Source: a virus
Lineage: Duplodnaviria > Heunggongvirae > Uroviricota > Caudoviricetes
Strand: one strand, 5' to 3'
Length of the DNA stretch: 64,000 nucleotides
IMG/VR virus record: IMGVR_UViG_3300044796_000394
The notes under the pieces are model-generated. The model made no database searches. It had not been told where the DNA came from and saw only the letters and a list, made by a program, of their open reading frames with translations. Position numbers and translations under genes: made by a program. Of this stretch, positions 16,804-57,328 are shown in pieces. Numbering within the stretch: position 1 is the first letter of the stretch; each line of letters opens with the position of its first letter.

Positions 16804-17081
16804 CTCTTGAGCTCCACAACTTTTTTGATTTGGAACTTTGGCAAAACGGATTCGTTATCAATGTACTCAGTTGCCAGAGCAATTGCCTCTTCCCCCGACA
16901 TTCTGGGATGTTGATAAACGAGATTGTAAAAGATTTCCGCCCGCCGAGCTGTTCTCGCAGCATCATCAGGATCGGTGGCACTGTAAATTTCCTTGCCGAT
17001 GACACCCGTTGTTTCAACGAGGTACTTCTTCTTCGACCACTGGCTCATTCTTGATCCCCTTGCGTTCCATTGCGATTTCAA
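16800..17081 (-). CDS. Hypothetical protein
   Basis: Packed between pyrG and the next gene; start probably MSQW. Confidence 0.55.
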   Translation of the reverse strand: MKSQWNARGSRMSQWSKKKYLVETTGVIGKEIYSATDPDDAARTARRAEIFYNLVYQHPRMSGEEAIALATEYIDNESVLPKFQIKKVVELKR

Positions 17082-18669
17082 TTAACTTGTGAAACAAAGG
17101 CGAAGAATTACCCAGACGACTCTTGAACTCTGGATGCGCCTGAACTCCCACAAAGAATGGATGCACCTTTGTATCTAATTCCATCACTTCAATCAATCCC
17201 GTTTGAGGATTGGTACCAGACACCTTAAACCCATGTTCAGTAAATTGCCCTGTGTACGCAGCATTAACTTCATAACGGTGCCGGTGTCTTTCGGAAATTA
17301 ACTTCTTTCCGTACGCCTTATATGCCAACGAGTCCTTAACCAACTCACAATCATAAGCACCCAATCTCAACGTTCCGGACTTGGTCTTAACACTTTGTTG
17401 CCCTTCAATGTAATGTACAACGTGCGAACCCTTCGTTGCGCTGAATTCTTGACTCGTAGCATCCTCAATGCCAATATGACGAGCAAATTCAATCACCGCA
17501 CATTGCAACCCCAAGCAGATGCCAAGGAAAGGTATCTTACGTTCCCGTACATACTCAATCGCCCTAATCTTGCCCTCTACTCCACGATTGTCAAAGCCGC
17601 CCGGTACAATCACACAGTCAATTCCCTCAAAGAACTTCTGCATACCTCTGAGAGTATGACATTCTTCCAATCGCTCAGCCTCAATCCAACGAATATTCGC
17701 TTTGGCATTGTTACTCACCGCTGCATGATAAATGGCTTCCTTCAAACTGAGGTACGCATCCGTCATACTGGTGTACTTGCCAATGATGCCTATATTCAAA
17801 TGTGGCATGTCTTTGGCGTTAACGTACTTCTCTACCAATTCCCGATATTTATGGATTCTAACCCCCGTACGACGCAAATGGAACCTATCTGCGATCAGAT
17901 CATCCACATGTCTCGTATAGAACGTAATCGGAACTTCGTACACGCTGCTAGTGTCTGGAGCATCGAATACCGCTTCCTTGGAAATCCCTGTTAACTCAGA
18001 AATCTTGGCAAGCAACTTTTCGGGGCATGGCCGATCAGTACGACAAATCAAAACATCAGGAAACAAACCAAATTGCTGTAATTCCGTAATGCTCTTCTGT
18101 AACGGCTTAGTTTTGAATTCCCCAATCGTGTTAACCCACAAAATCGGGGCAACATGGCAAAGCATGACGTTATTTGGGCCGTGCTTATGTCGGAATTGCT
18201 GAATGGCCATCATGAAGTGGCCGCTTTCCAAATCGCCTACAGTACCACCGATTTCAACGATCACGATGTCATGGTCTTTACCGAAGTCTTCTAGGATTGC
18301 GTGAATTTTATTGGTGACGTGGGGATGGATTTGAATTGTTTGACCGAGATACTTGCCTTCTTTCTCTTCATCAAAAACCTGTGAGAGAAGGTGGCCGTTA
18401 GTACAGATGTTCTTTTGTGAGACCTCGATACCAGTGATGCGTTCGTAAGTTCCTAAATCCAAGTCGGTTTCGGAACCATCGTCGCACACAAGGCATTCAC
18501 CATGCTGGTACGGTGAAAGTGTGGATGCCGATCTGTTGAGATAGGGGTCGAATTTGATGATATTAATTTTTTCCCCCCGCATCTTCAAAAGCAAACCGAT
18601 AGAAGCCGCCGACACACCCTTACCACAACCACTGATTACGCCGCCTGTCACAAAAATATATTTGCACAT
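17014..18669 (-). CDS. pyrG: CTP synthase
   Basis: KYIFVTGGV.S..GKG, DPYLN, P.QHGE, GGTVGD.E, KTKP.Q, GICLGLQ, ERHRHRYE, Q.HPEF. Confidence 0.98.
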   Translation of the reverse strand: MCKYIFVTGGVISGCGKGVSAASIGLLLKMRGEKINIIKFDPYLNRSASTLSPYQHGECLVCDDGSETDLDLGTYERITGIEVSQKNICTNGHLLSQVFDEEKEGKYLGQTIQIHPHVTNKIHAILEDFGKDHDIVIVEIGGTVGDLESGHFMMAIQQFRHKHGPNNVMLCHVAPILWVNTIGEFKTKPLQKSITELQQFGLFPDVLICRTDRPCPEKLLAKISELTGISKEAVFDAPDTSSVYEVPITFYTRHVDDLIADRFHLRRTGVRIHKYRELVEKYVNAKDMPHLNIGIIGKYTSMTDAYLSLKEAIYHAAVSNNAKANIRWIEAERLEECHTLRGMQKFFEGIDCVIVPGGFDNRGVEGKIRAIEYVRERKIPFLGICLGLQCAVIEFARHIGIEDATSQEFSATKGSHVVHYIEGQQSVKTKSGTLRLGAYDCELVKDSLAYKAYGKKLISERHRHRYEVNAAYTGQFTEHGFKVSGTNPQTGLIEVMELDTKVHPFFVGVQAHPEFKSRLGNSSPLFHKLIEIAMERKGIKNEPVVEEEVPR

Positions 18670-18817
18670 TATTCTGTTGCCTCTTCCTTCTGTAATGGTT
18701 GGGCACTCCCAAAGCCATATGTTTAACCTATATCTACAGTTAGTGTATTACACCAAGAATGATATTACCATTTTTGCCTATATAATCAACCCCATCACCC
18801 TTCAACGAGGTGTCCCA

Positions 18818-19228
18818 TTGCCATTCAACGTCATTTGTGAAAAATTAGCAAAAAAAGTAACTACGTGGGCTGGTTCCACCAATGCCACTATACTTGCTTT
18901 TGCTCTTATTATCAGTTGGACAATCGGGGGACTCTTTGAGGGCTTTTCCGATTCTTACCAAATGATAATTAATACCGGTACCACCATCATCACTTTCCTG
19001 ATGGTATTCCTCATCCAGCGTACCCAAAACAAAGACTCAACCGCAATACAACTCAAACTCAATGAACTCATCGCTTCCGTGGATGGTTCCAGCAACCGTT
19101 TACTCAATATCGAAGACCTATCCGAGTCTGATATCGAAATACTGCGCAAGAGGTACCGTAGTCTGGCTCTAAGAACCAAATCCGACGATAACTTTACGAG
19201 TCGTCACACAATCGAAGAGATTGAATGA
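18818..19228 (+). CDS. Low-affinity iron permease family protein
   Basis: FSD.YQ.IINTGTTIITFLMVFLIQ.TQN.D..AIQLKLNELI; GAGG SD before TTG 18818. Confidence 0.9.
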   Translation: MPFNVICEKLAKKVTTWAGSTNATILAFALIISWTIGGLFEGFSDSYQMIINTGTTIITFLMVFLIQRTQNKDSTAIQLKLNELIASVDGSSNRLLNIEDLSESDIEILRKRYRSLALRTKSDDNFTSRHTIEEIE

Positions 19229-19229
19229 C

Positions 19230-19916
19230 TTACAGTTTCTCTTTGAATGAAAACATGACCGCACCCCAGAGACGAGGATTGGAAATAACAGGCTTGAACT
19301 CTACCTTCTTACGCTTCTTAGCGACTTGATAGCATACTACGATACGGACATCATTGCCGTCACCATAGTTCGTTCCGCTGTCATGAATGAGATTCCAGTC
19401 ACTTGGAATCGTTACAGAGTCAGAATAAGCAGAGCCGCCAATAGCGAGAACTCCGTAAACCAACCAATTCTTGTGCCCTACCTTGAAAGTACCAGCATCC
19501 ACAGCAGCATTAACTGTTGAGGAATAAGCACTGCTCATCTTTTCAAAGGTTCCAATATTGTACCACTCATCATTAGCAATCAAGCGGTGTTTGGAAAGTT
19601 GGTGAGCCACAGTTACCGTAGTATCAACATTGACCACCGCTGCCAATTTGCTGAATACCGACAAGGCAAAAGTTCCGAACAAAACCTCTTTGATGAGGTT
19701 ATAGGAACTTCCTTGGGTGTCAGTACAAGTTGCGGCGGTTGTGTGACCAGTATCACCGGGGCCAGCAACGTGCATTACAAAGTTCGTGTAATTAACAGCC
19801 GTGACTTCGGTTGGAGCCGTTTCTGCTGTTACGGCAATCGTAGTTGTCGTAGTATCAGAACCTGCACTAACGGCTGTCGGGCCAAATGAGCGGTCGAATG
19901 TAATCTTATGTGCCAT
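19230..19916 (-). CDS. Hypothetical beta-rich, Thr-rich protein (possibly virion)
   Basis: 228 aa, AAGGA SD, ATAAATA upstream. Confidence 0.65.
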   Translation of the reverse strand: MAHKITFDRSFGPTAVSAGSDTTTTTIAVTAETAPTEVTAVNYTNFVMHVAGPGDTGHTTAATCTDTQGSSYNLIKEVLFGTFALSVFSKLAAVVNVDTTVTVAHQLSKHRLIANDEWYNIGTFEKMSSAYSSTVNAAVDAGTFKVGHKNWLVYGVLAIGGSAYSDSVTIPSDWNLIHDSGTNYGDGNDVRIVVCYQVAKKRKKVEFKPVISNPRLWGAVMFSFKEKL

Positions 19917-20018
19917 GAATTTTTCCTTTAACTTATTTATCCCGAAGCCAAAAATCTCTACAGTAGGTTAGTAAAACTTATGAAATCTAATTTTCTATTT
20001 AGCTATCTAAATATCACC

Positions 20019-20273
20019 ATGCTAAAATTTAACGAATATCACCAAATCCAAGAGTCTGCCGTAAACGAAATTCTCGTTAATCCTGCACTCAAACTCAAAA
20101 TTCGCAAGAATCAATTTGGTGAGTTTGAAGTACGTGTTTTGAGACTCGTTGGCAAAGTATGGCGTTCCAACGAAAAGGAAACTGCCTTTATGAGCGATCT
20201 TCAAGATGCCATTGGTACGATGCAAGATATGGCACGGAGGATGACCGTTTCCTCCGCACCAAATCAAGCTTAA
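20019..20273 (+). CDS. Hypothetical protein, candidate internal head protein
   Basis: Start MLKFNEYHQIQE; CTAAATA at 20007-20013. Confidence 0.6.
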   Translation: MLKFNEYHQIQESAVNEILVNPALKLKIRKNQFGEFEVRVLRLVGKVWRSNEKETAFMSDLQDAIGTMQDMARRMTVSSAPNQA

Positions 20274-22544
20274 CTAGAACGAAACGGCACAAGCGCCTCC
20301 TGCACAAGCTGCCTCTCCAATCAAGTTAGTTTCATCACTATCTTCGGTGAGTGAGGCGTAATCAACGTGCTTCCATTCACGCTTTAAGTCACACCACATT
20401 TTCCAATTGCTGACTTCTTTCAAGCAATAAATCATTCTACCTTTGTCGCCACTAAAGTAGCGGTCGGCAAATTGTTCTGCCCGACGTACCCAATCTATTT
20501 TCAGATCGTATTTGTTTAACCAATTAGGATTGTCCGGCTTTGCAACTTTATTAATACCACGCAAAGTATCACAAGCAACCCACAAGCTATCAAAAGCGTG
20601 AAGGCCATCCACAATTAACCCTGATGCGAAGATAGAGGCATCTCCATACTTGGCAACCAATTCTTCCGGCGTACTCACAGCACAGAACGGAGCTTGCGGA
20701 TAATCCAAATCACCAGTTGAAGGCAACAAACTGATACCTGCGAAGAATTCACGATTGTCATAGATGTAATTTTCTACTTCATCCCATTCTTCAGGTTTAA
20801 CTGAAACGGTATTAGAAACATTGTGACGAAGCCAAGGCTGCGCACATCGTTCAAGTCTAGTACCGGCACTCACCCAATTCTGTTGTGTCAATTTGACAAA
20901 CTTCAAAAGGTTAATAGCGCTGATATGCTCTTTCGTCAAAGCCTTATCATCAACTTCAATACAGAACGTCAAGATGGAATCATGACCATTCTTTGACCAA
21001 ACACTCTTTTCACAAGCCAACGGATTGACATCAGCAAAGAATTTCAATGGTGCTTCAAGGTTGTTACCCTGTACTCGTCGGAAATATCTCTTGCTGTGGT
21101 GAGGGTGGACGCCCGATGACGTTCCCAACATACAACTTGTCGTACCAGCAGGCTTGATACAAGTGCATCTGGCAGCAGGATTGATCCCCAACTCTACCGC
21201 AAATTCACCGTTAACTTCCTTGATAATTTCAGCCATCTTACGCTGAATATCAGGACTGAACATCACTCTGGAATTTTCCATCATTCCCGTAATACTGACG
21301 CCCAACAACGCTTCTCTAGCCGTAATCCGCTCACTGACTTCACCCAGATAAGGGAAAGACGTATAGCTGGCTTGGAGCGTACCGATGATAGCACCTGCAC
21401 GAGCAGCTACCTCAAAATCTTCTTCATTCTCAATCATCTTGCCGTTGATTTCGGTCAAGTTACAGAACTGCCAACCACTGTTTCCAAATTCATCATAAGC
21501 GTACAGGGCGATTTCAACGCAAGGGTTGAAACCACATTCTTCGCTGTCCGACCAGATGAATCCGGGTTCGCCGTATTCCTTAACCCAAGTCATCAGGTTT
21601 TTGAATTGCTCTTTGGTGGTCTTATTACGAATTAACAAGGCACTATTGTTGCTTCTTGCTCGTTGTGGGTTTTCATAGAACCAGTTACCGGTCTTGGCCT
21701 TGGCCATTTCCATATCGTCTGGACTGAATAAACAGATCGTAGCCGAACGACGAACACCACCGCTGAGAACGGCATCGGATGCGTACATCACAATGTCGTA
21801 AGCATCAATAGGTCTTAGAGCAACCGTTTCCGGGTTAATTGTAATTCTAGCGTGTAGTTCATTCTTGACAACTACTTCCGGTGTATTCAATTCGCTATCG
21901 CACTTTATGTCAAACTTAAGACGATTATCAAGCAGCTTGCGAATTAACTCTAATGATTTTTCCAGCGGTTCAGGGCCGGGGCATTTACCTGAGCCTGATG
22001 ACAGTGGGGTACCTTTAGGGCTGATGTTGGCGTAATCGAATTCAACCGTGTAGCCGAAGTAATCGGAGTCTGGATTCGTGTAGGAATCGATGAGGACGCC
22101 TAGAGAGTCGCCCCAACCTGCGATAGAATCGGGAATGAGGTATGTCATTCCACCATTGGCAGGTTTATGCAATACTGGCAACTTAGCAACGTGGTGCTTC
22201 TGTACAGAGAAACCTACGCCACTTCCGCAGAGGAGGAGGTAGAAGGCTTCTTGGAAAAAGCGTGGTCGGTCGCAATAAGAGAAACAGCAGTTGTAAATCC
22301 GAGCATTAACCTTTTCAATTGGCTTGCCACCGAATTGCAATGCTCGCTGAGAACCGAGTACTCTTTTTTCCAGTACACGATCAAAGGCCCAATTGATTTT
22401 TTCTTCGGCGTGTGAATGCTTTCTGATGTGCATTTGTCTGACACGATCTACCGCTTCTGGCCATGTTTCACGACGTTTTTTATCTTCTAGGTATCTTGCG
22501 TATTTGCTTGTGTATGTGTAATCTTGTAACGCTTCTACTGACAT
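20274..22544 (-). CDS. nrdJ: Class II (B12-dependent) ribonucleotide reductase
   Basis: SKYARY..RRETW, YNC, G.GVGFS, GGVRRSA, GEPG, NPCVEI, QFCNL.E, CIKPAGT, C-terminal ACAGGAC. Confidence 0.93.
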   Translation of the reverse strand: MSVEALQDYTYTSKYARYLEDKKRRETWPEAVDRVRQMHIRKHSHAEEKINWAFDRVLEKRVLGSQRALQFGGKPIEKVNARIYNCCFSYCDRPRFFQEAFYLLLCGSGVGFSVQKHHVAKLPVLHKPANGGMTYLIPDSIAGWGDSLGVLIDSYTNPDSDYFGYTVEFDYANISPKGTPLSSGSGKCPGPEPLEKSLELIRKLLDNRLKFDIKCDSELNTPEVVVKNELHARITINPETVALRPIDAYDIVMYASDAVLSGGVRRSATICLFSPDDMEMAKAKTGNWFYENPQRARSNNSALLIRNKTTKEQFKNLMTWVKEYGEPGFIWSDSEECGFNPCVEIALYAYDEFGNSGWQFCNLTEINGKMIENEEDFEVAARAGAIIGTLQASYTSFPYLGEVSERITAREALLGVSITGMMENSRVMFSPDIQRKMAEIIKEVNGEFAVELGINPAARCTCIKPAGTTSCMLGTSSGVHPHHSKRYFRRVQGNNLEAPLKFFADVNPLACEKSVWSKNGHDSILTFCIEVDDKALTKEHISAINLLKFVKLTQQNWVSAGTRLERCAQPWLRHNVSNTVSVKPEEWDEVENYIYDNREFFAGISLLPSTGDLDYPQAPFCAVSTPEELVAKYGDASIFASGLIVDGLHAFDSLWVACDTLRGINKVAKPDNPNWLNKYDLKIDWVRRAEQFADRYFSGDKGRMIYCLKEVSNWKMWCDLKREWKHVDYASLTEDSDETNLIGEAACAGGACAVSF

Positions 22545-22598
22545 TCTGATCCTTAATTCTTAAACTTTGAGGGAAGGTATTTAAAGTGATACCGTCAA

Positions 22599-22778
22599 TT
22601 ATTCTTTAAATTGTTGAGCAAAAGAGTTCAAATCAATGAAATGTTCCTTTAAAATGCCCGGAAATGATTCTTCTGCTTGTTTTAGAATTTCGGCATCAGA
22701 CGGAGTAGTAAGACTTTCATGATCGGCAGCTTGGAACCAATACAAAATACGATTTGCATCTTCTTTAGTTAAATTCAT
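22599..22778 (-). CDS. Hypothetical protein (59 aa, not in the ORF track)
   Basis: MNLTKEDANRILYWFQAADHE..., ATGA-coupled to the last array gene. Confidence 0.55.
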   Translation of the reverse strand: MNLTKEDANRILYWFQAADHESLTTPSDAEILKQAEESFPGILKEHFIDLNSFAQQFKE

Positions 22779-22996
22779 TCTGACTCTTCTTTCAATATTT
22801 CACATTTGATTTTTGGTTTTTTTATTCTAATAAGCGGTGTTGTTAACAATATCGAATCCATTGACGGATAGGCTCTTCGTATCAGAGGCATATGCAAAGT
22901 CGGATACGTTAAAGTCGGATACGTTCTACGATTTTCCGGAATCTCTTTGAGTGGAATTTCCTTAAATCCTTTTAATTTTTCAATACGTTCTGGCAT
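22775..22996 (-). CDS. Small protein with KxKIxCEIL C-terminal tag (array member 6)
   Basis: Ends KKPKIKCEILKEESE; TAATG coupling; internal 15-bp tandem duplication (TYPTL x2, 22896-22925). Confidence 0.75.
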   Translation of the reverse strand: MPERIEKLKGFKEIPLKEIPENRRTYPTLTYPTLHMPLIRRAYPSMDSILLTTPLIRIKKPKIKCEILKEESE

Positions 22997-23319
22997 TATT
23001 CTTCCCCCAATATTTCACATTGGATTTTAGACTTTTTCAACACGTAAGGCTTAGTACACTCATAGGCATAACTGTATTCATCCTGCCATCGTTCATTGCC
23101 GTTAAAAGTTGTACCAGAACCAACACCACGGGAACTGATACCAACACGAGGCATGGGAACGGCCAAAATAGATGGATTTTGAGCCATGACTTCAAGTTTC
23201 AATTTCTGCAATTGCTTAATTTTCAATTCTGCTATTATTTTTTCTTGTTCTGTCTTTGTGAGCTCTTTGAATTCTTTCAAAAAATTCTCTACAATTCTAA
23301 TTTCACTTTCAGTTGGCAT
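22996..23319 (-). CDS. Small protein with KxKIxCEIL tag (array member 5)
   Basis: Ends KKSKIQCEILGEE; TAATG coupling. Confidence 0.75.
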   Translation of the reverse strand: MPTESEIRIVENFLKEFKELTKTEQEKIIAELKIKQLQKLKLEVMAQNPSILAVPMPRVGISSRGVGSGTTFNGNERWQDEYSYAYECTKPYVLKKSKIQCEILGEE

Positions 23320-23630
23320 TATTCAATCTCCTTTAATATTTCGCATTTTATTTTTGATTTTTTGATACGAATGTAACCATAGTTAGTTTGCATGATAGGA
23401 TCTGCTGAATGTGAGACAGTTAATGGCTCGCCCCACGAATTTTGAAGAATAATCTCCCCACATGGATTTGCGCCAACATAATTAACAGAATGACTCCAAA
23501 CATTACGATCTGCAAACTGAGACGGAATATTAACTAGCGGTATACCCGATGACATACCATATTCAACTTCATCCCATTGTGATGACAATGATGATGAAAT
23601 TGATGTTGGCCACGTTGCATAAACTGGCAT
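23319..23630 (-). CDS. Small protein with KxKIxCEIL tag (array member 4)
   Basis: Start MPVYAT at 23630 (TAATG); ends KKSKIKCEILKEIE. Confidence 0.75.
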   Translation of the reverse strand: MPVYATWPTSISSSLSSQWDEVEYGMSSGIPLVNIPSQFADRNVWSHSVNYVGANPCGEIILQNSWGEPLTVSHSADPIMQTNYGYIRIKKSKIKCEILKEIE

Positions 23631-23833
23631 TATTCTTCCCCTAATATTTCGCAAGTAATTTTTGGTTTTGGAAAATATGATCCAAAAACTTGTTGGTGGT
23701 AATCTGCTGGCAGTGCGTAATGATGCCTATAATTTTTGTTGAAAATTTGTGATTGTGTGATTCCACAATGTCTGTATAAAGCAGCCATCACCTCTCGCTT
23801 CAAAGCCTCCAAAGTTTCTTCTTCAGTTTTCAT
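23630..23833 (-). CDS. Small protein with KxKIxCEIL tag (array member 3)
   Basis: Ends PKPKITCEILGEE; AAGGAG SD. Confidence 0.75.
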   Translation of the reverse strand: MKTEEETLEALKREVMAALYRHCGITQSQIFNKNYRHHYALPADYHQQVFGSYFPKPKITCEILGEE

Positions 23834-24029
23834 CTGGCAGCTCCTTTAATATTTCGCATATGATCTTGGATTTCTTTTTCGATTTCTCCGAGCTCCAGCT
23901 ATGATCAAACGGATCGTGCCAAACGTAATCGTCAGAGTAAGAGTTGGCGTACGAATACGAATATAATGATGTTGATGCCGCTGGCACATCAACCGTGATG
24001 TTCATATCTTCAATAACAACTTGTGGCAT
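23823..24029 (-). CDS. Small protein with KxKIxCEIL tag (array member 2)
   Basis: Ends KKSKIICEILKELPDEN; TAATG coupling. Confidence 0.75.
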   Translation of the reverse strand: MPQVVIEDMNITVDVPAASTSLYSYSYANSYSDDYVWHDPFDHSWSSEKSKKKSKIICEILKELPDEN

Positions 24030-24253
24030 TACTCTTCCCCCAATATTTCACAGGTGATTTTAGACTTGATTTTAGGCTTAACAATTTGTTTGCCGTATCT
24101 TGTCAAGGTAGGTGTGGTGGCGATACCGTGGTAATACAATGGATTGACACGGGTACGGTAACTTTCACGGGCTGCTGTTTCGCTCGTATAATAATCATAA
24201 TACGAAGACAAGTTGATTGGCGTATTGCCTGTTTTTACTGCTTCTATTTTCAT
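24029..24253 (-). CDS. Small protein with KxKIxCEIL tag (array member 1)
   Basis: ATGA-coupled to the gp46-like gene; ends IKSKITCEILGEE. Confidence 0.75.
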   Translation of the reverse strand: MKIEAVKTGNTPINLSSYYDYYTSETAARESYRTRVNPLYYHGIATTPTLTRYGKQIVKPKIKSKITCEILGEE

Positions 24254-26205
24254 TTGATCCTACTTATTCCGTTTTCTTTAATGACTGTGATAGTATCGTA
24301 GTTACTTAACATTTCCAACAATTCAGGATCGTGTGTAGTCACCAAGACTTGACGATCTCTTGCCAATTCGCAAATCATGGCAAAAACGGATTGAATGCCC
24401 GGTCTGTCCAGATTTGTACCAACCTCATCCAGACTGACAAGACTCGGACAGGAACCAGCCGTTAAAGCGGTTACGTTTGCGAATCCCTGCGAAATACCCA
24501 AGCTGATGCGTTGATGTTCACCGCCAGACATTGCGCTGTGTACGAAAGGATCACCGTCTGGAGGATTCCTCTCAATCTTCTCAACCAATTCCGTATTGAA
24601 CTTAAGAGTGATCTTATTATCAATCAAGAATTGGAGCCAGAAGTTAATCTTGGCATTGAGCAATGGAACGATTTCATCAATGATAAACGACCGAATGCCC
24701 TTGTCGCCGAAACCCATAATCCAAAAATCGTAATATGGGATTTGAGAAGTATGCTCATCAACTTCCTTACGCTGCGACATCATCTTTTGACGATTGAAAT
24801 CTAATTCTGCTTCCAAATTGGCCAAGATCGGCCCATAAGGATCGCCTGCCTCGTACTCAGTTACTTTCTGCTCTAATTGTTCTGACAGTGTATCAATCTT
24901 TTGTTCGATAATCAATGCCGCTGCATTAGCATTCTTCTGAAAAGCCGCTGTCAACTGTGAACGCTTGGATTCCAACTCACGAATATTCCTCACGACACCC
25001 AATTCACGAATTTTGGCATTTTCAATCGCTTCAACAATAGCCGCAATCGCCCTATCGTACTTGCCCATCTTGACAGCCGCCGCATCCCAATCGGTCTGAT
25101 TCTTCTTGATCTCTTCCCTGATTTCAGCAATCTGATCCTCGTTATGGGAAATCACGTGCTGGAAATTTTCCTTGTTCACAACACCGAAACAAACCTTACA
25201 TTTAGTACCGTTACTCGTCGTCAAAGAATGGGTTTGTTGCTTCAATTCCTCAATGTCTTTTTCACTCTTCTTGATTGCGTAAGCGAGTTCTTTAGTTCCT
25301 AGCATCAACGTTTGACGATCTTCACGTACTTGACTGTGTTTCTTTTCCGCTTCTCGAATCGCTTCCTGTATCGCTTGACGAGATTTCGTTTTTTCTTGAA
25401 TCGACTCTTCAACCAAAGAAATGTTCTCGTAGCTACTCACCGAATCTGGCTGAATTTGGGCCATCTCCTCTTTTGCCCTAACAATCTGTAGCTTCAATCG
25501 CTCAATGCTGTTCATCTGGCCCATTCGCCAATCTTCACGCTGCTTTGAGATGTTGATAATTTGCCGTTCAGCAGTTTGAACATTAACAGAACTTTTTTCA
25601 TAAACTGCTTTGATGACTTCCAGCTTTTGAAGAATTACAGTTTTCCGCTTCTTCGCCGACTCACAAAACTTATTGTACTTGTCTAGAGACAACAAACTCT
25701 CTGCGATCTGCCTTTTTTCAGAAGGGTTGCACATCAAGAAAGGCTTAGCGTTATGCTGGCCGAAACAAACAATGTTAATGAAGGCATTGTAGTTCAGTTT
25801 GATGATCTTGTTGATTTCATCTTGGGTTGCAGGAATACCACCGAGCTTCTGTAAATCGCCATCCTTGTACAGAGTCAAATCGTTCTTTTCTCTTCTGCGA
25901 TTGATCACATAAGCGTGACCGTCCAATTCAAAGCCAATTTCAACTTCCAACTTGGACTTCATCTTAATGTTGATGACTTCGTATTGGTTGAGGCTCTTGA
26001 TCAGCTTGCCATAAAAGGCGTAAACAATGGCTTCTATGATGGTACTCTTACCAGCACCATTACTCGCATCTTTGCCAATATCAAGATTTTCACCTTTGAT
26101 ACAAACGATGTTGCCGTACTTTGTGAAATCGATGAAAAGAGGATTCTCGTTTCCGAACGATAAAAAGTTTGATGCTTTGATGTAATTGATTTTCATTCGG
26201 CGCAA
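24250..26205 (-). CDS. Recombination ATPase, SbcC/Rad50/T4 gp46-like
   Basis: NFLSFGN, G.N..SNGAGKST, coiled coil with CKVC zinc hook, MSGGE, LDE, H-loop TH. Confidence 0.93.
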   Translation of the reverse strand: MRRMKINYIKASNFLSFGNENPLFIDFTKYGNIVCIKGENLDIGKDASNGAGKSTIIEAIVYAFYGKLIKSLNQYEVINIKMKSKLEVEIGFELDGHAYVINRRREKNDLTLYKDGDLQKLGGIPATQDEINKIIKLNYNAFINIVCFGQHNAKPFLMCNPSEKRQIAESLLSLDKYNKFCESAKKRKTVILQKLEVIKAVYEKSSVNVQTAERQIINISKQREDWRMGQMNSIERLKLQIVRAKEEMAQIQPDSVSSYENISLVEESIQEKTKSRQAIQEAIREAEKKHSQVREDRQTLMLGTKELAYAIKKSEKDIEELKQQTHSLTTSNGTKCKVCFGVVNKENFQHVISHNEDQIAEIREEIKKNQTDWDAAAVKMGKYDRAIAAIVEAIENAKIRELGVVRNIRELESKRSQLTAAFQKNANAAALIIEQKIDTLSEQLEQKVTEYEAGDPYGPILANLEAELDFNRQKMMSQRKEVDEHTSQIPYYDFWIMGFGDKGIRSFIIDEIVPLLNAKINFWLQFLIDNKITLKFNTELVEKIERNPPDGDPFVHSAMSGGEHQRISLGISQGFANVTALTAGSCPSLVSLDEVGTNLDRPGIQSVFAMICELARDRQVLVTTHDPELLEMLSNYDTITVIKENGISRIK

Positions 26206-27233
26206 ATCTCCTGTGCTATTTTGAGCAAGTCATTCGTGTCTAAATTTTGTGTATTGCTGGCAGAAATGAACCTTTGGAAAAGGTCGCCATCTTGCAAATT
26301 GAATTTGAGCATTCGATCTTCTTTGGATTCTTCTTTCGCAATGATTTCCTTCGGTAGAAATGTTACTTGTGAATCCGGTGATGTAGAACGTACCTTGCTC
26401 TGTAAATCTACTACGTCGGCAGAATTGAGGTCATCGACGTAAACCCTCACGAAATTGCGGCCCAAATCTTCGGGCAAATCCACAGCATCCAAAATCAAAT
26501 GCTTCGGTGAAAAATCATTAACTATCGCAATCGTTTCCAATGTTTCAGTATCCATCGCCAAGATGTGTTTTTCCTGAAAGGCTTCGTTAAATGTTAACTG
26601 TAATGGCGAACCGATGTACTCTACCTTGTCGGTCAATTTTTGGGCACCGTGATAGTGTCCCAAGAAAACTCTGTTCCATCCGTCAAAAAGATCACGGCTA
26701 ACAGGTACCATATCGTTTTCATTCTCAACCGATACTTCTGCTTTTGTTCTATGATTAAAGTTAAGTACGGCACCATCTACGGCAATATGACCAATCAATA
26801 CGTTAGACTTCTTCGCTTTCCAATTCTTTAGAGTATTAATTGGATTATGAGTGAAGGGCAAGAAGTCAATTGGGAAATCGCCGACCATCACGGTTGATGG
26901 TTCCGATACGACAGTAACGTTTTTAAGGGCAGCGAACGGATGTACACTAGAGATTTCTTTACTTTCGTAAAACCACAGATCGTGGTTGCCGAGTAGAAGA
27001 TAAAGATTAATGTCGGGATTGGCATTCAGAACATTGAATGTTTTGTTGTAAGCCAAAACTTGAATTTTTTGACGGTCTTGAAAGAGGTCGCCGCCAAAAA
27101 CGATATTTTTGATCTTCCGCTTGCGGGCCGTATCAAAAACCCACTGGAGGACTTTTAGACAATCCTCCAAGCGATCTTGACTACCTTTATGTGCTGCGAT
27201 GTGAACGTCTGAGAAAAATAAAATTTCGGGCAT
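26193..27233 (-). CDS. Recombination nuclease, SbcD/Mre11/T4 gp47-like
   Basis: SDVH, GGDLF, GNHD, LGHYH, YIGSP.Q..F.E. Confidence 0.93.
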   Translation of the reverse strand: MPEILFFSDVHIAAHKGSQDRLEDCLKVLQWVFDTARKRKIKNIVFGGDLFQDRQKIQVLAYNKTFNVLNANPDINLYLLLGNHDLWFYESKEISSVHPFAALKNVTVVSEPSTVMVGDFPIDFLPFTHNPINTLKNWKAKKSNVLIGHIAVDGAVLNFNHRTKAEVSVENENDMVPVSRDLFDGWNRVFLGHYHGAQKLTDKVEYIGSPLQLTFNEAFQEKHILAMDTETLETIAIVNDFSPKHLILDAVDLPEDLGRNFVRVYVDDLNSADVVDLQSKVRSTSPDSQVTFLPKEIIAKEESKEDRMLKFNLQDGDLFQRFISASNTQNLDTNDLLKIAQEICAE

Positions 27234-27299
27234 AGAAGTACCGAGGGGTTATGTCGGTATATTCTAACGATAATCTTTTCATTTTCTATCTTACTTTTT

Positions 27300-27695
27300 T
27301 CACTTCAACAAACTCTTGGGCTTTTGCTCAACTTTGGCAACTTTATTTAACTTTGGATTGCGTTTTGAAACACTAATCTCATTGAAAAATTCGTTATACT
27401 TTTGATCGTCAGCGACACGTCTTAACACTTTCCAAACGTCGGCAATGGAAATGTTTTGGATAGGTACAGGAGTTGCCGGTGGTGGTGGTGCGCCCATTCC
27501 GCCCATATCACCGCCCATAGGAGGCCCGCCACCCATTCCGCCCATCATAGGATCAGCACCGGGAGCACCTCCCATCGCATCAGGGGCACCACCCATTTCA
27601 CCACCTGGAGCAGGCGGCATACCACCAGCCGGGGGCGGTGGACCAAGAGGAGCTTCGGTTAAGCGGGTACAGGCTTCATAAAAACTTTGCTTCAT
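27300..27695 (-). CDS. Gly/Pro/Met-rich low-complexity protein
   Basis: Start MKQSFYE..LTE; CTAAATA 7 nt upstream. Confidence 0.7.
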   Translation of the reverse strand: MKQSFYEACTRLTEAPLGPPPPAGGMPPAPGGEMGGAPDAMGGAPGADPMMGGMGGGPPMGGDMGGMGAPPPPATPVPIQNISIADVWKVLRRVADDQKYNEFFNEISVSKRNPKLNKVAKVEQKPKSLLK

Positions 27696-27807
27696 ATGAG
27701 ATTATTTAGTACTATTTTCTTGACTTATGAGAAAAATTATGAGATTATATTATCAACGCTGGTTGAGCCGGAACCAGTAACAACGTAGATTCTCAGGGGA
27801 GAAGACG

Positions 27808-28137
27808 ATGAAAAGACCACTTCAAGAACCCAAATCTCAGCGATACAGAGCAATTGCCGTCTTTGCCAGTGGCAAAGAAGGGTTGATAACGCTCGGTAGC
27901 AACTACGCCTTTGTACAGGAAAACTACGACGAAGCGTTTCACAAACTGTACGGCGTGGACAGCGAAGGGAACCAAACAGCGAGCATTAAGGAGGTTCATG
28001 TCCAGCAATGGCAAGGGCAATCCGATGTTGGCCGCTGGAATACCCTCAAGGTTCTTCCGGTGCCACAACCCGTCGTCATCGGCATCGGCGTACGCAAAAA
28101 GCCGGTTGAAACCGCTGCGGAACCGACCATCGGTTAA
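27808..28137 (+). CDS. Hypothetical protein
   Basis: 109 aa with GGGGAG SD. Confidence 0.65.
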   Translation: MKRPLQEPKSQRYRAIAVFASGKEGLITLGSNYAFVQENYDEAFHKLYGVDSEGNQTASIKEVHVQQWQGQSDVGRWNTLKVLPVPQPVVIGIGVRKKPVETAAEPTIG

Positions 28138-28159
28138 ATAAAAAAATATTTTTCACAAA

Positions 28160-28183
28160 ATCGGCGGATTTTTATCCGCCGAT
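28160..28183. other. 10-bp inverted repeat (hairpin or operator)
   Basis: ATCGGCGGAT-TTTT-ATCCGCCGAT in an intergenic gap. Confidence 0.55.
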
Positions 28184-28197
28184 CATTATTTAACGGT

Positions 28198-28491
28198 ATG
28201 ATAAACGTTAAACCCCCAGATCCGTTTTGTGAAGCCGTATTAGGTGAATTCAAACCGGACAAAGTAAAAACAGACAAAGGCACTCTCGCCTTTGCACGCA
28301 AAGGCGAACTTTTCATCGCCGAAGAATACGCACAAAAATGGGTTGATCCCGTTACCTTCCAAAATAAATGGATCTTTGGAAATGTGAACCTAGTCGAATG
28401 GCGACTGGTAAGCAAATTGGATGGCTCGGTTAGCTACGAAAGGCAAATGGAACCTTGCCTCAAAGGTGGCAAACTTAAGGATATGCTCTAA
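28198..28491 (+). CDS. Hypothetical protein
   Basis: 97-aa ORF followed by a terminator. Confidence 0.6.
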   Translation: MINVKPPDPFCEAVLGEFKPDKVKTDKGTLAFARKGELFIAEEYAQKWVDPVTFQNKWIFGNVNLVEWRLVSKLDGSVSYERQMEPCLKGGKLKDML

Positions 28492-28494
28492 ACG

Positions 28495-28521
28495 AAAAAG
28501 CCCGGCTTAGCCGGGCTTTTT
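28495..28521. terminator. Bidirectional intrinsic terminator
   Basis: AAAAAGCCCGGC-TTA-GCCGGGCTTTTT between convergent genes. Confidence 0.85.
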
Positions 28522-29925
28522 TCATTCTTGTACAGTCACTTTATGCCCTTCGGCCTCAATGATCTTCACTCGCTTCCAAGAGTGCTTTTCCAGATAATCA
28601 TTGATTTCAAAGATAAAGTCATAATACTTTAAGTGATCCTTGTCATTCGCCATACGCAATCCACGACCAAATCTTTGAATAATCTGGTGGTCGGCCTGGC
28701 CCCCGCACGCATTTACGAGATTATGACAAAAGACGTTAATACCGGTATTGAAAATACCGGAAGTCGCAATCGCAACCAAATCGTCTTCATCGTGCTTCAA
28801 TCGGTCAATGATATATTTGCGAGTCTCTAGAGTATCCTCGCCTCGTACCCACAACGAACCGGGGATCAATTCCTGCAACCTGTCGCCGTGGGCAATTCTC
28901 TCAACAATTACCAAGGAACGACCTTTCAAGCCTTTCACTAGATCAGAAACCTGCTTATGAAAATGTTCATTTTCAGCAATACCAAATGTAACTGCATCCA
29001 AATAAATCGCATATGGAATCTTAGGTTCTGTGACTTTGGCAAAATAGCATTCCGCACTGGATAAAATGTTCCGATCTTGAAGTTCTTTGGTTGTTAACTT
29101 TCCACTCTCGGTGCTGTCGGTCAAGAAGGGAGGGCCAAACCATCCCTTGACATCATACATCTGGCTTTCATCCTTGCCTCCAAACTTGAACGGCGTAGCG
29201 CTCATTCCAATCCGTACAGAGCAATTCTTCATCGCAGCGTAAATCTTCTTCGGCACCTTGCTCATCATTTCATGGATTTCGTCCACGATCAACACTTGGA
29301 TTTTGCCGAGTACCGGTTTAAGTAAGTGGGCGCTCTGAGAAGTGCTACAAGTGATGTAATTCGGATCTTTCTTGGAACCGTACAGCCTACCGCATTCCAA
29401 TCCCAAAGACTTGATTTCTTCGTAGTTCTGATCCACCAGAGAGGTTTTATTGGCTAGAATAAGCGTTGGCGTCTTAGGCGGCAATGCCTTGACAATCGCC
29501 TTCATCGTATTGGTTTTACCAGATGAAGTCGGAGATGTAATGAGACCACGACTGTATTTGATTGTGTGGTTAACGTAATCAACTTGATAATCCCGAAGTT
29601 CCTTAACTGGATTCGGGCCTTCATTCAAGAAGTACTGATTGATGGAAGGAACACGCCAAGTGATTTTGTTACGAAAATCAGCGACCGTGTAAGGAGCACC
29701 CAACTCCTTCAAAGCACCCTTGACTTCCGGAAGCAGACCAGTTAAAAACCTACCGGAATCTTTCTTGAAGAAATCATCGTAACCGTCCCAGAGTTTTTGT
29801 TTATATCGAAAGTTGTGAAAGTAATTCTTGGCTCTGACCCGCAATGCTCTCCAAAGTATATGCTTCAAGCCCTCGTCTCCGGATTCCAACCAACTATAAT
29901 TGTTTTCTAACCGTAAATTGTTCAT
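28522..29925 (-). CDS. SF2 DNA helicase (UvsW-like)
   Basis: LRDYQ, SPTSSGKT, VDEIH, SATP, TGIN, Q..GRGLR; N-terminal WDG motif. Confidence 0.9.
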   Translation of the reverse strand: MNNLRLENNYSWLESGDEGLKHILWRALRVRAKNYFHNFRYKQKLWDGYDDFFKKDSGRFLTGLLPEVKGALKELGAPYTVADFRNKITWRVPSINQYFLNEGPNPVKELRDYQVDYVNHTIKYSRGLITSPTSSGKTNTMKAIVKALPPKTPTLILANKTSLVDQNYEEIKSLGLECGRLYGSKKDPNYITCSTSQSAHLLKPVLGKIQVLIVDEIHEMMSKVPKKIYAAMKNCSVRIGMSATPFKFGGKDESQMYDVKGWFGPPFLTDSTESGKLTTKELQDRNILSSAECYFAKVTEPKIPYAIYLDAVTFGIAENEHFHKQVSDLVKGLKGRSLVIVERIAHGDRLQELIPGSLWVRGEDTLETRKYIIDRLKHDEDDLVAIATSGIFNTGINVFCHNLVNACGGQADHQIIQRFGRGLRMANDKDHLKYYDFIFEINDYLEKHSWKRVKIIEAEGHKVTVQE

Positions 29926-29963
29926 ATGAATAAGATACTAACATACAAACTAAAGAATGTCAA

Positions 29964-30533
29964 TTATTCTTTGAATTGTCCAGCAAGTAATTTGGGATAG
30001 CGACTTTTTGGCAACCACGGGGCAATCATACGAATTAACGTCTCAGTACCCGGAACCGTAAAGACAATCACATAACTCTTGCGTGATTTATTAATATTAC
30101 AAGGAATTTCAACCTCATTGAAATATTGTTCAATGATTTCATTGCCTTTTAAGCCAAAAGACTGCGTCCGAAGACAAGCGTTCTTCATCTTGCGGCCAAT
30201 CAGTGTGCCACTATCACCGTACCAAACTGCAAGCCCCATATCTCTCAACGGATCAAGCCATTCCATGCAAACTTGTTTTTTGCCGTCGGGATAGCAGAAT
30301 TTACGCAGATCGGTGAAAATTGGATGTGAAACAGAACGCCAAGTACAAGTCGTTCCACTGATATACCACGGTGTTGCGGCCCCGTAATGCGCAATTTCGC
30401 TCGCCTTGGTTTGAAGCCAAGATAAGTGCTTGCTGCTGTGTCTCATACACAAGTAGCTGTTCTTAGAGCCTTGGCAAATATATCCATTGCCAAGCAGCGT
30501 ACCCAAGACGATTTGTCTTTGATTGTCGTCCAT
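29964..30533 (-). CDS. Free-standing LAGLIDADG endonuclease-like protein
   Basis: LGTLLGNGYI and GLAVWYGDSG motifs. Confidence 0.8.
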   Translation of the reverse strand: MDDNQRQIVLGTLLGNGYICQGSKNSYLCMRHSSKHLSWLQTKASEIAHYGAATPWYISGTTCTWRSVSHPIFTDLRKFCYPDGKKQVCMEWLDPLRDMGLAVWYGDSGTLIGRKMKNACLRTQSFGLKGNEIIEQYFNEVEIPCNINKSRKSYVIVFTVPGTETLIRMIAPWLPKSRYPKLLAGQFKE

Positions 30534-56935: not shown

Positions 56936-57328
56936 TTAACCCACGCTGTCGGTGGTTTCTAGTTTAGTTTCTGAAGGGAATGGAATAGTTTTTTCGCAAC
57001 CCTTCACCTTGAAAACCGGGGGCTTTGGTTCGTCTTTCTTTAACACTTCCACGGCCAAAGGATGCAACTTGGCCAAATCTTGAAGAAACTCCAATGTGAA
57101 CTTGGCCTGATCTTCATCTACCCGTGGCCCCCAAGTACTCACCATCAATTTCAAAAGCCCAGTATCCTGCCAACCAGCGACTTTAGCCGCCTGATAAGCA
57201 GCAGCCTTGGCCTGTGCAGAAGTACCAGCCCATGTTTTAGAACCCATGTCCATCCAATCTTCAATGTTGAGCTTAATGCCCTGACGTTGGATGTCGCCAT
57301 TTAGGCTTACAATAACAGGATTACTCAT
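56936..57328 (-). CDS. Hypothetical protein
   Basis: 130 aa with GAGG SD. Confidence 0.6.
   Translation of the reverse strand: MSNPVIVSLNGDIQRQGIKLNIEDWMDMGSKTWAGTSAQAKAAAYQAAKVAGWQDTGLLKLMVSTWGPRVDEDQAKFTLEFLQDLAKLHPLAVEVLKKDEPKPPVFKVKGCEKTIPFPSETKLETTDSVG

Follow-up and report, generated by a model that had tools for sequence, protein, structure and literature searches.

The capsid-targeting sequence of the internal proteins of T4 is N-terminal and cleaved, and SspB-type adaptors carry a C-terminal peptide that docks on the N-domain of ClpX. DSAD1 is reportedly one protein directed against one sensor, DSR2. On the bacterial side, Avs families recognise the folds of capsid, portal and other core proteins, and Lit and CapRel respond to short motifs of the capsid (PMC12803255); the Gol region both binds EF-Tu and switches on Lit (PMC3014915), and prohead proteases activate CBASS through cleavage (10.64898/2026.03.04.709575).

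The locus described here, in which six coupled phage genes (ORF1 to ORF6) encode small proteins with one shared C-terminal tag, resembles several of these systems in part. As in the proteins with the T4 capsid-targeting sequence, one short tag is carried by unrelated small proteins, but the array tag is C-terminal, overlaps the ribosome-binding site of the next gene and sits in a replication block. Proteins of the capsid-targeting type were rejected as an explanation, the shared motif being C-terminal and the N-termini having only Met1 in common. The likeness to DSAD1 is that a small phage protein would replace a structural trigger; the array differs in having linear excerpts of several triggers, one tag and coupled genes. 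ORF6 copies a capsid segment that aligns with residues 96-107 of T4 gp23, which is reminiscent of the Gol region and the Lit/EF-Tu exclusion system (PMC3014915), but Gol lies inside the full capsid protein and triggers the defence, whereas the array has some 11-16 residues, placed in a tagged gene of their own. With SspB-type adaptors and the engineered CLIPPER degraders (PMC12373786), the array shares a bait, a loose linker and a constant terminal peptide, and the CLIPPER degrader is the nearest engineered design; the array tag has its own sequence, the baits are phage excerpts and the protease partner is only putative. The folded substrate-binding domain of the SspB family, expected of an SspB-type ClpX adaptor, was not found (no Pfam match; pLDDT 0.44 for the Atlas model of ORF5). 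No account of tagged excerpt genes was found in the searched literature, which covered few subscription papers, and word look-ups in passages of PMC13581612, 10.1101/2025.06.06.658234 and PMC13728456 returned none. The architecture fits no published family tested and appears to be new as an architecture, with a putative function.

The window, that is, the whole stretch of 64,000 nucleotides that was analysed, belongs to a virus record of 174.7 kb (G000:C1) with an estimated completeness of about 35%, and the window stretch was present in two runs, both of peat metagenomes, one of which may be its source. Proteins of the record also occur on a contig of 614,480 bases, and its capsid protein is T4-like with 68% identity to the capsid of the 595-kb phage LR756511.1; therefore, the record is most likely a piece of a T4-like megaphage. 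The array is located between genes for a gp46/SbcC-like recombination nuclease subunit (24250..26205, minus strand; phrog_77, E 2e-78), whose stop codon overlaps the start of ORF1, and a class II ribonucleotide reductase (RNR; nrdJ, 20274..22544, minus strand; phrog_367, E 4e-99; PF21995), which forms the downstream flank. The PHROG and Pfam scan placed gp47, gp46, class II RNR and CTP synthase around the array, a recombination and nucleotide block. A Pro/Gly/Met-rich gene of 131 aa lies directly upstream of gp47 (27300-27695, minus strand), and a similar gene is found there in most of the relatives compared. Many genes of the record (e.g., G000:C1 8874-10328, 15753-15962 and 91076-91432) start with a short M-x-x-F-x-[ED]-[WF]-like motif, which we take to be typical of capsid-targeted proteins in such phages.

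According to a preliminary description of this DNA, six consecutive ORFs on the minus strand, each encoding 67-107 aa, separate gp46 from nrdJ; their coordinates, ends and overlaps were all reproduced. These are ORF1 (24029..24253, 74 aa, tag at 24032-24067), ORF2 (23823..24029, 68 aa, tag at 23838-23873), ORF3 (23630..23833, 67 aa, tag at 23633-23668), ORF4 (23319..23630, 103 aa counted from ATG, tag at 23325-23360), ORF5 (22996..23319, 107 aa, tag at 22999-23034) and ORF6 (22775..22996, 73 aa, tag at 22784-22819), all on the minus strand. An untagged gene of 59 aa on the same strand (22599..22778), coupled to ORF6 and with neither an excerpt (panel p 0.94, see below) nor a family, ends the array. 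A seventh tagged gene, ORF7 (G000:C1 130579-130779, equal to L001:1580-1780; 66 aa, minus strand), lies after a gene labelled by its sequence as aspartyl-tRNA-synthetase-like. One-base TAATG overlaps join ORF1 to ORF2, ORF3 to ORF4, ORF4 to ORF5 and ORF5 to ORF6, four-base ATGA overlaps join gp46 to ORF1 and ORF6 to the untagged gene, and the ATG of ORF3 lies 11 bases within ORF2. In all eight genes (the six of the array, ORF7 and the untagged follower) the called frame had the best codon-usage score of the six possible frames.

The bodies that precede the tag are rich in Tyr, Ser, Thr and Pro. They had been said not to align with one another, and indeed just 3 of 21 body pairs reached p<0.05, over short stretches scoring 26-35. 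An ordinary paralog family of a known domain was rejected, since full-length alignment is absent and no Pfam or PHROG match below E 0.009 was obtained for the six. An exact 15-nt tandem duplication that keeps the frame is located in ORF6 just before its capsid-like segment (22896-22925). Contigs from one RNA run (X2) covered 29 of 30 bins of 20000-27500, neighbouring genes included, with a gap at 23012-23262; as the contigs assembled from an RNA library may derive from DNA, this does not demonstrate transcription. Within 22450-24500, 11 promoter-like sites were counted as compared with 6.0 +/- 2.7 in shuffles, which fits one operon and is otherwise uninformative, and no terminator was detected in the same interval.

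The motif K[SP]KIxCEIL is located at or close to the C-terminus in all seven members. A profile of the tails matched exactly seven places when all six frames of the 174.7-kb record were searched, and a DNA matrix of the tag scored the seven copies at 43-50 and the next place in the genome below 10; both were built from the same seven copies and thus exclude further copies but give no independent significance. Comparison of the seven copies showed constraint on the tag at the amino-acid level, with pS of 0.91 and pN of 0.07 over nine core codons. Variable columns numbered 3, 1 and 8 (of 9 each) at codon positions 1, 2 and 3, so that third positions made up 8 of 12 (p 0.0016), and this bias toward synonymous changes indicates that selection acts on the peptide. 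A DNA repeat cassette of the att or CRISPR kind was rejected on the same values, as frame-independent conservation is absent and the copies stand solely in frame at gene ends.

Behind the core, the codons for G or K and for the subsequent E spell GGGGAAGA or AAGGAG, a few bases ahead of the next start. When pairing was computed with what we take to be the anti-Shine-Dalgarno motif, five of the seven starts behind a tag reached -7.9 kcal/mol or lower, which is stronger than the 10th percentile for 131 genes of the genome (-7.4), with one moderate and one weak start. Therefore, G and K at this position are best taken as alternative ways of spelling a ribosome-binding site. The tag had been described as K[SP]KIxCEIL[GK]E; K[SP]KIxCEIL stands as the core at the protein level, and the [GK]E[ELI] end is explained at least partly by the Shine-Dalgarno sequence of the next gene. 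The stretch GAAATATT, which contains the rare ATA codon (11% of Ile codons), is identical in the six array copies, and the seventh copy, which has ATC CTC, lacks it and retains the peptide; the invariance points to shared descent or an extra RNA constraint. The tag of ORF7 holds the strongest Shine-Dalgarno sequence (-11.4 kcal/mol), for an overlapping downstream gene that is histidine-phosphatase-like by eye.

Several candidate identities for the tag were examined. The option of a follower peptide with a reactive Cys, raised in the preliminary description, found no support, in that no enzyme that would modify a RiPP precursor was recognised among the 18 proteins of 17014-30533 in this record of about 35% completeness. 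A docking or oligomerisation handle, raised there as well, may apply. Mimicry of a bL21 strand was rejected (profile rank 122 of 37,214 windows and column-shuffle p 0.31, with a profile from 9 of 18 sequences); in two records retrieved by the tag pattern (L028 and L228) the bL21 strand almost exactly equals the tag, and the bL21 family overall does not. Pfam and PDB searches of the tails gave no match. The predicted complex of the ClpX N-domain with the tag scored 0.00, which is evidence neither for nor against docking. A gene of 194 aa (G000:C1 139025-139609, minus strand) is ClpP-like by eye and is a candidate tag partner. The partner may also be encoded outside the 174.7-kb record.

Among the bodies, ORF5 carries the clearest resemblance to core phage proteins. 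Aligned with the phage's own proteome, it matched the C-terminal helix of the portal (ORF5 segment 23149-23286, minus strand) with a score of 89, as compared with 59 for the best of 30 shuffles, and blastp matched it to the portals of two relatives with E 5e-7 and 1e-6. Directly after the portal helix follows the stretch RVGISSRGVGSG (23101-23148, minus strand), in which 12 of 16 residues are identical to the prohead protease, the SSRG motif of the active site is conserved and the p value on a panel of ten core families was 0.0025. In its protease motif ORF5 has the consensus of the clade, and the portal helix turned up only in the three megaphage portals. On these alignments, the assignment of ORF5 as a joining of a portal C-terminal helix to a prohead-protease active-site motif is firm. 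None of three candidates checked was a homolog of ORF5.

Probable capsid excerpts were identified by sequence comparison in ORF6 and ORF1. The segment MPLIRRAYPSM of ORF6 (22859-22906, minus strand; panel p 0.030) corresponds to IPLVRRIYPQL of the phage's own capsid, the match extending over capsid residues 61-76 with 6 of 16 identical; the segment of T4 gp23 with which it aligns presumably lies inside the 29-residue Gol region. The segment LTRYGKQIV of ORF1 (24074-24106, minus strand; panel p 0.047) resembles the C-terminal TRYGK segment of the capsid protein. In blastp among 10,115 ORFs, the top non-self match of ORF1 (E 0.65) and the second non-self match of ORF6 (E 1.3) were to LR756511.1, in each case to a small gene with the respective capsid segment at its end. 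ORF4 contains the stretch GANPCGEIIL (23442-23474, minus strand; panel p 0.19), which is like the NPC-E loop of the RNR active site, and windows of ORF4 matched RNR models and nothing else in the libraries (phrog_367, E 0.039, in PHROGs; TIGR02505, E 0.043, in NCBIfam), which weakly suggests a possible excerpt of this loop. For ORF3, a candidate excerpt of the capsid backbone helix (23762-23803, minus strand; 5 of 14 identities to residues 299-312 of the own capsid) was not significant on the panel (p 0.34). The N-terminus of ORF2 resembles by eye that of the tail sheath, and its best panel match was sheath column 25, which was not significant (p 0.87); ORF7 had no significant excerpt on the panel (p 0.76). 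By sequence, one of the seven members is thus a firm case and two are probable, whereas a further one is possible and three are unproven.

The ten-family panel was picked after the motifs had been seen, and its p values are corrected. Three of the six array members reached p<=0.05 on it, as compared with 2 of the 55 small genes that served as controls (Fisher exact 0.005), and the combined p was 0.002 (0.042 without ORF5). When about 118 family profiles were used as an unbiased panel, ORF5 alone was significant (ORF6 p 0.36, ORF1 p 0.87, ORF4 p 0.16). At residues identical to the core protein a different codon is used in 9 of 15 cases for the portal, 5 of 12 for the protease, 6 of 6 for the capsid segment of ORF6 and 7 of 7 for RNR, and the excerpts are therefore re-coded and not fresh duplications. 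The three capsid blocks lie only at the 68th-80th percentile of conservation among seven T4-type sequences. A constant tag with variable cargo had been proposed at the outset: the tag is constant and the bodies differ, but the cargo does not appear to be arbitrary, firmly so for portal and protease and probably for the capsid.

Ten distinct relatives with gp47 and gp46 were compared, namely nine of 11 close loci (two near-duplicates were omitted) and LR756511.1. In none of them does a run of small genes follow gp46, RNR being directly next or one gene later, and the array is therefore an insertion. The tag profile found the seven copies in the own genome and none in 52 related records (0 of 5 and 0 of 47, mostly fragments, one 91% complete). 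Scans with DNA patterns of the tag gave no matches in IMG/VR in one scan and seven in a second, of which three lay inside long frames and four departed from the peptide pattern; 31 matches in metagenomes, with no array or small-gene tail; and 3 and 19 matches in GTDB, with no tag found. A word-index protein search with a profile of the tag found four own proteins among 168 candidates and no tag elsewhere, and missed two own members present in the index. A search of 1.84 billion proteins, listing matches at E<=0.001 only, returned six own proteins and one unrelated repeat protein; a match through the tag only is expected at E of about 0.1-1, and this search therefore does not establish the absence of the tag. 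No shared C-terminal motif stood out in the small ORFs of LR756511.1, of a second related genome (G051) and of part of a third (G002), and no informative match was obtained among GenBank phages when ORF1, ORF5 and two excerpts served as tblastn queries. The tag thus looks particular to its own lineage as far as these sequence searches reach.

Excerpts that lack the tag are more widely spread. In LR756511.1, 5 of 739 small ORFs carry a capsid segment at z>=6.9 (588014-588313, plus; 234344-234796, minus; 430481-430852, plus; 195953-196459, plus; 278791-279024, plus; z 6.9-17), and the first two of these end in the segments found in ORF1 and ORF6. At the same threshold 1 of 372 small ORFs was found in G002, a gene of 68 aa with the excerpt at its end (G002:C1 186902-187108, minus; z 17.9), and none of 401 in G051 had a capsid excerpt above z 6.2. 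In the window itself, an untagged gene of 130 aa outside the array (56936..57328, minus strand) contains a T4-type capsid excerpt, the EFLQDL segment (z 7.3, panel p 0.005). The habit of carrying excerpts is therefore common to part of the clade.

We consider it about an even chance that the array is a set of co-expressed decoys, in which excerpts serve as baits on a shared handle against host sensors of phage proteins. The mini-proteins would be made together with gp47, gp46 and nrdJ and would present trigger-like peptides on loose linkers, and the excerpts would bind the sensors with which the host detects phage proteins and prevent these from firing. The tag would dock every member on one partner, which could be a protease, a phage protein or the members themselves, and this partner would hold or destroy whatever the excerpts catch; alternatively, the tag would cluster the members. 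The combined end of tag and ribosome-binding site would let baits be added in tandem with translational coupling kept. Likeness to known defence triggers is firm for ORF5 (portal and protease) and probable for ORF6 and ORF1 (capsid). Arguing against decoys, CBASS reads protease activity, which is absent from a 16-residue excerpt, a capsid peptide on its own could set off a Lit-type system instead of blocking it, and Avs receptors read folds and not short motifs (PMC12803255). Our confidence in the decoy reading is held at this level because sensors that read folds may ignore peptides and sensors that read motifs may fire. A more tentative extension, which we consider doubtful, is a modular and extendable anti-immunity cassette, in which each excerpt together with the one handle would deliver a bound sensor to a common inactivating partner. 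With equal reserve, this extension counts excerpts of capsid (three places), portal, prohead protease, RNR and tail sheath, and would amount to a natural bait-and-degrade library, in which the DNA end of each unit also provides the ribosome-binding site of the following one.

Other explanations place the function elsewhere. The tag may be a shared docking signal on unrelated cargo, with ORF5 the sole true excerpt and the other resemblances due to chance, as the unbiased panel leaves only ORF5 and four of seven bodies were not significant on the ten-family panel; we judge this unlikely, given a combined p of 0.042 even without ORF5, the independent retrieval of LR756511.1 capsid-excerpt genes by ORF1 and ORF6, and the retrieval of RNR by ORF4 in two libraries. 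Slightly less probable is that the members are tagged dominant-negative poisons, whose excerpts would block the assembly of heads or the supply of nucleotides in T4-like phages that infect the same cell, while the tag localises or multimerises the poisons. The stretch GANPCGEIIL of ORF4 differs from GFNPCVEIAL of the phage's own RNR, and for the untagged gene at 56936-57328 the match is to T4-type capsids, so that some excerpts may be foreign; the best excerpts, however, fit the own clade (the consensus protease motif, and a portal helix known from three megaphage portals) and would strike the phage itself.

That same closeness to own-clade proteins would suit self-regulators, whose excerpts would vie for interfaces used in assembly of the phage itself or for partners in the host, such as EF-Tu in the case of the capsid segment, and whose tag would address them to one site; the T4 Gol region binds EF-Tu (PMC3014915). 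The array is missing from all relatives examined, unlike a core assembly function, and is located in the recombination and nucleotide block, and we give this explanation a low probability. Least probable, and already largely refuted by the codon pattern, is a DNA or RNA cassette, an A-rich enhancer with a Shine-Dalgarno sequence that spread by recombination, with the peptide as a by-product and the bodies as captured debris. The pairing at five of seven starts beyond the genome's 10th percentile and the invariance of GAAATATT with its rare ATA across the six array copies would be expected of such a cassette, but the tag changes at synonymous sites, the seventh copy with ATC CTC retains the peptide, no out-of-frame or intergenic copy exists, and every frame is open and has a coding score.

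Most core phage proteins are read by bacterial sensors and are hard for phages to change; a design that copies just the piece being read and places it on a shared handle would offer a general solution to this problem. If the cassette reading is true, the excerpts would map the epitopes read by bacterial sensors, including an unreported sensor of the RNR active-site loop; each excerpt would amount to a short, testable prediction of what a sensor recognises, and the partner could be sought with the 9-residue tag as bait. Should the members not act as decoys, the growth of such arrays would still be explained by a peptide under selection that also serves as the ribosome-binding site of the next gene.
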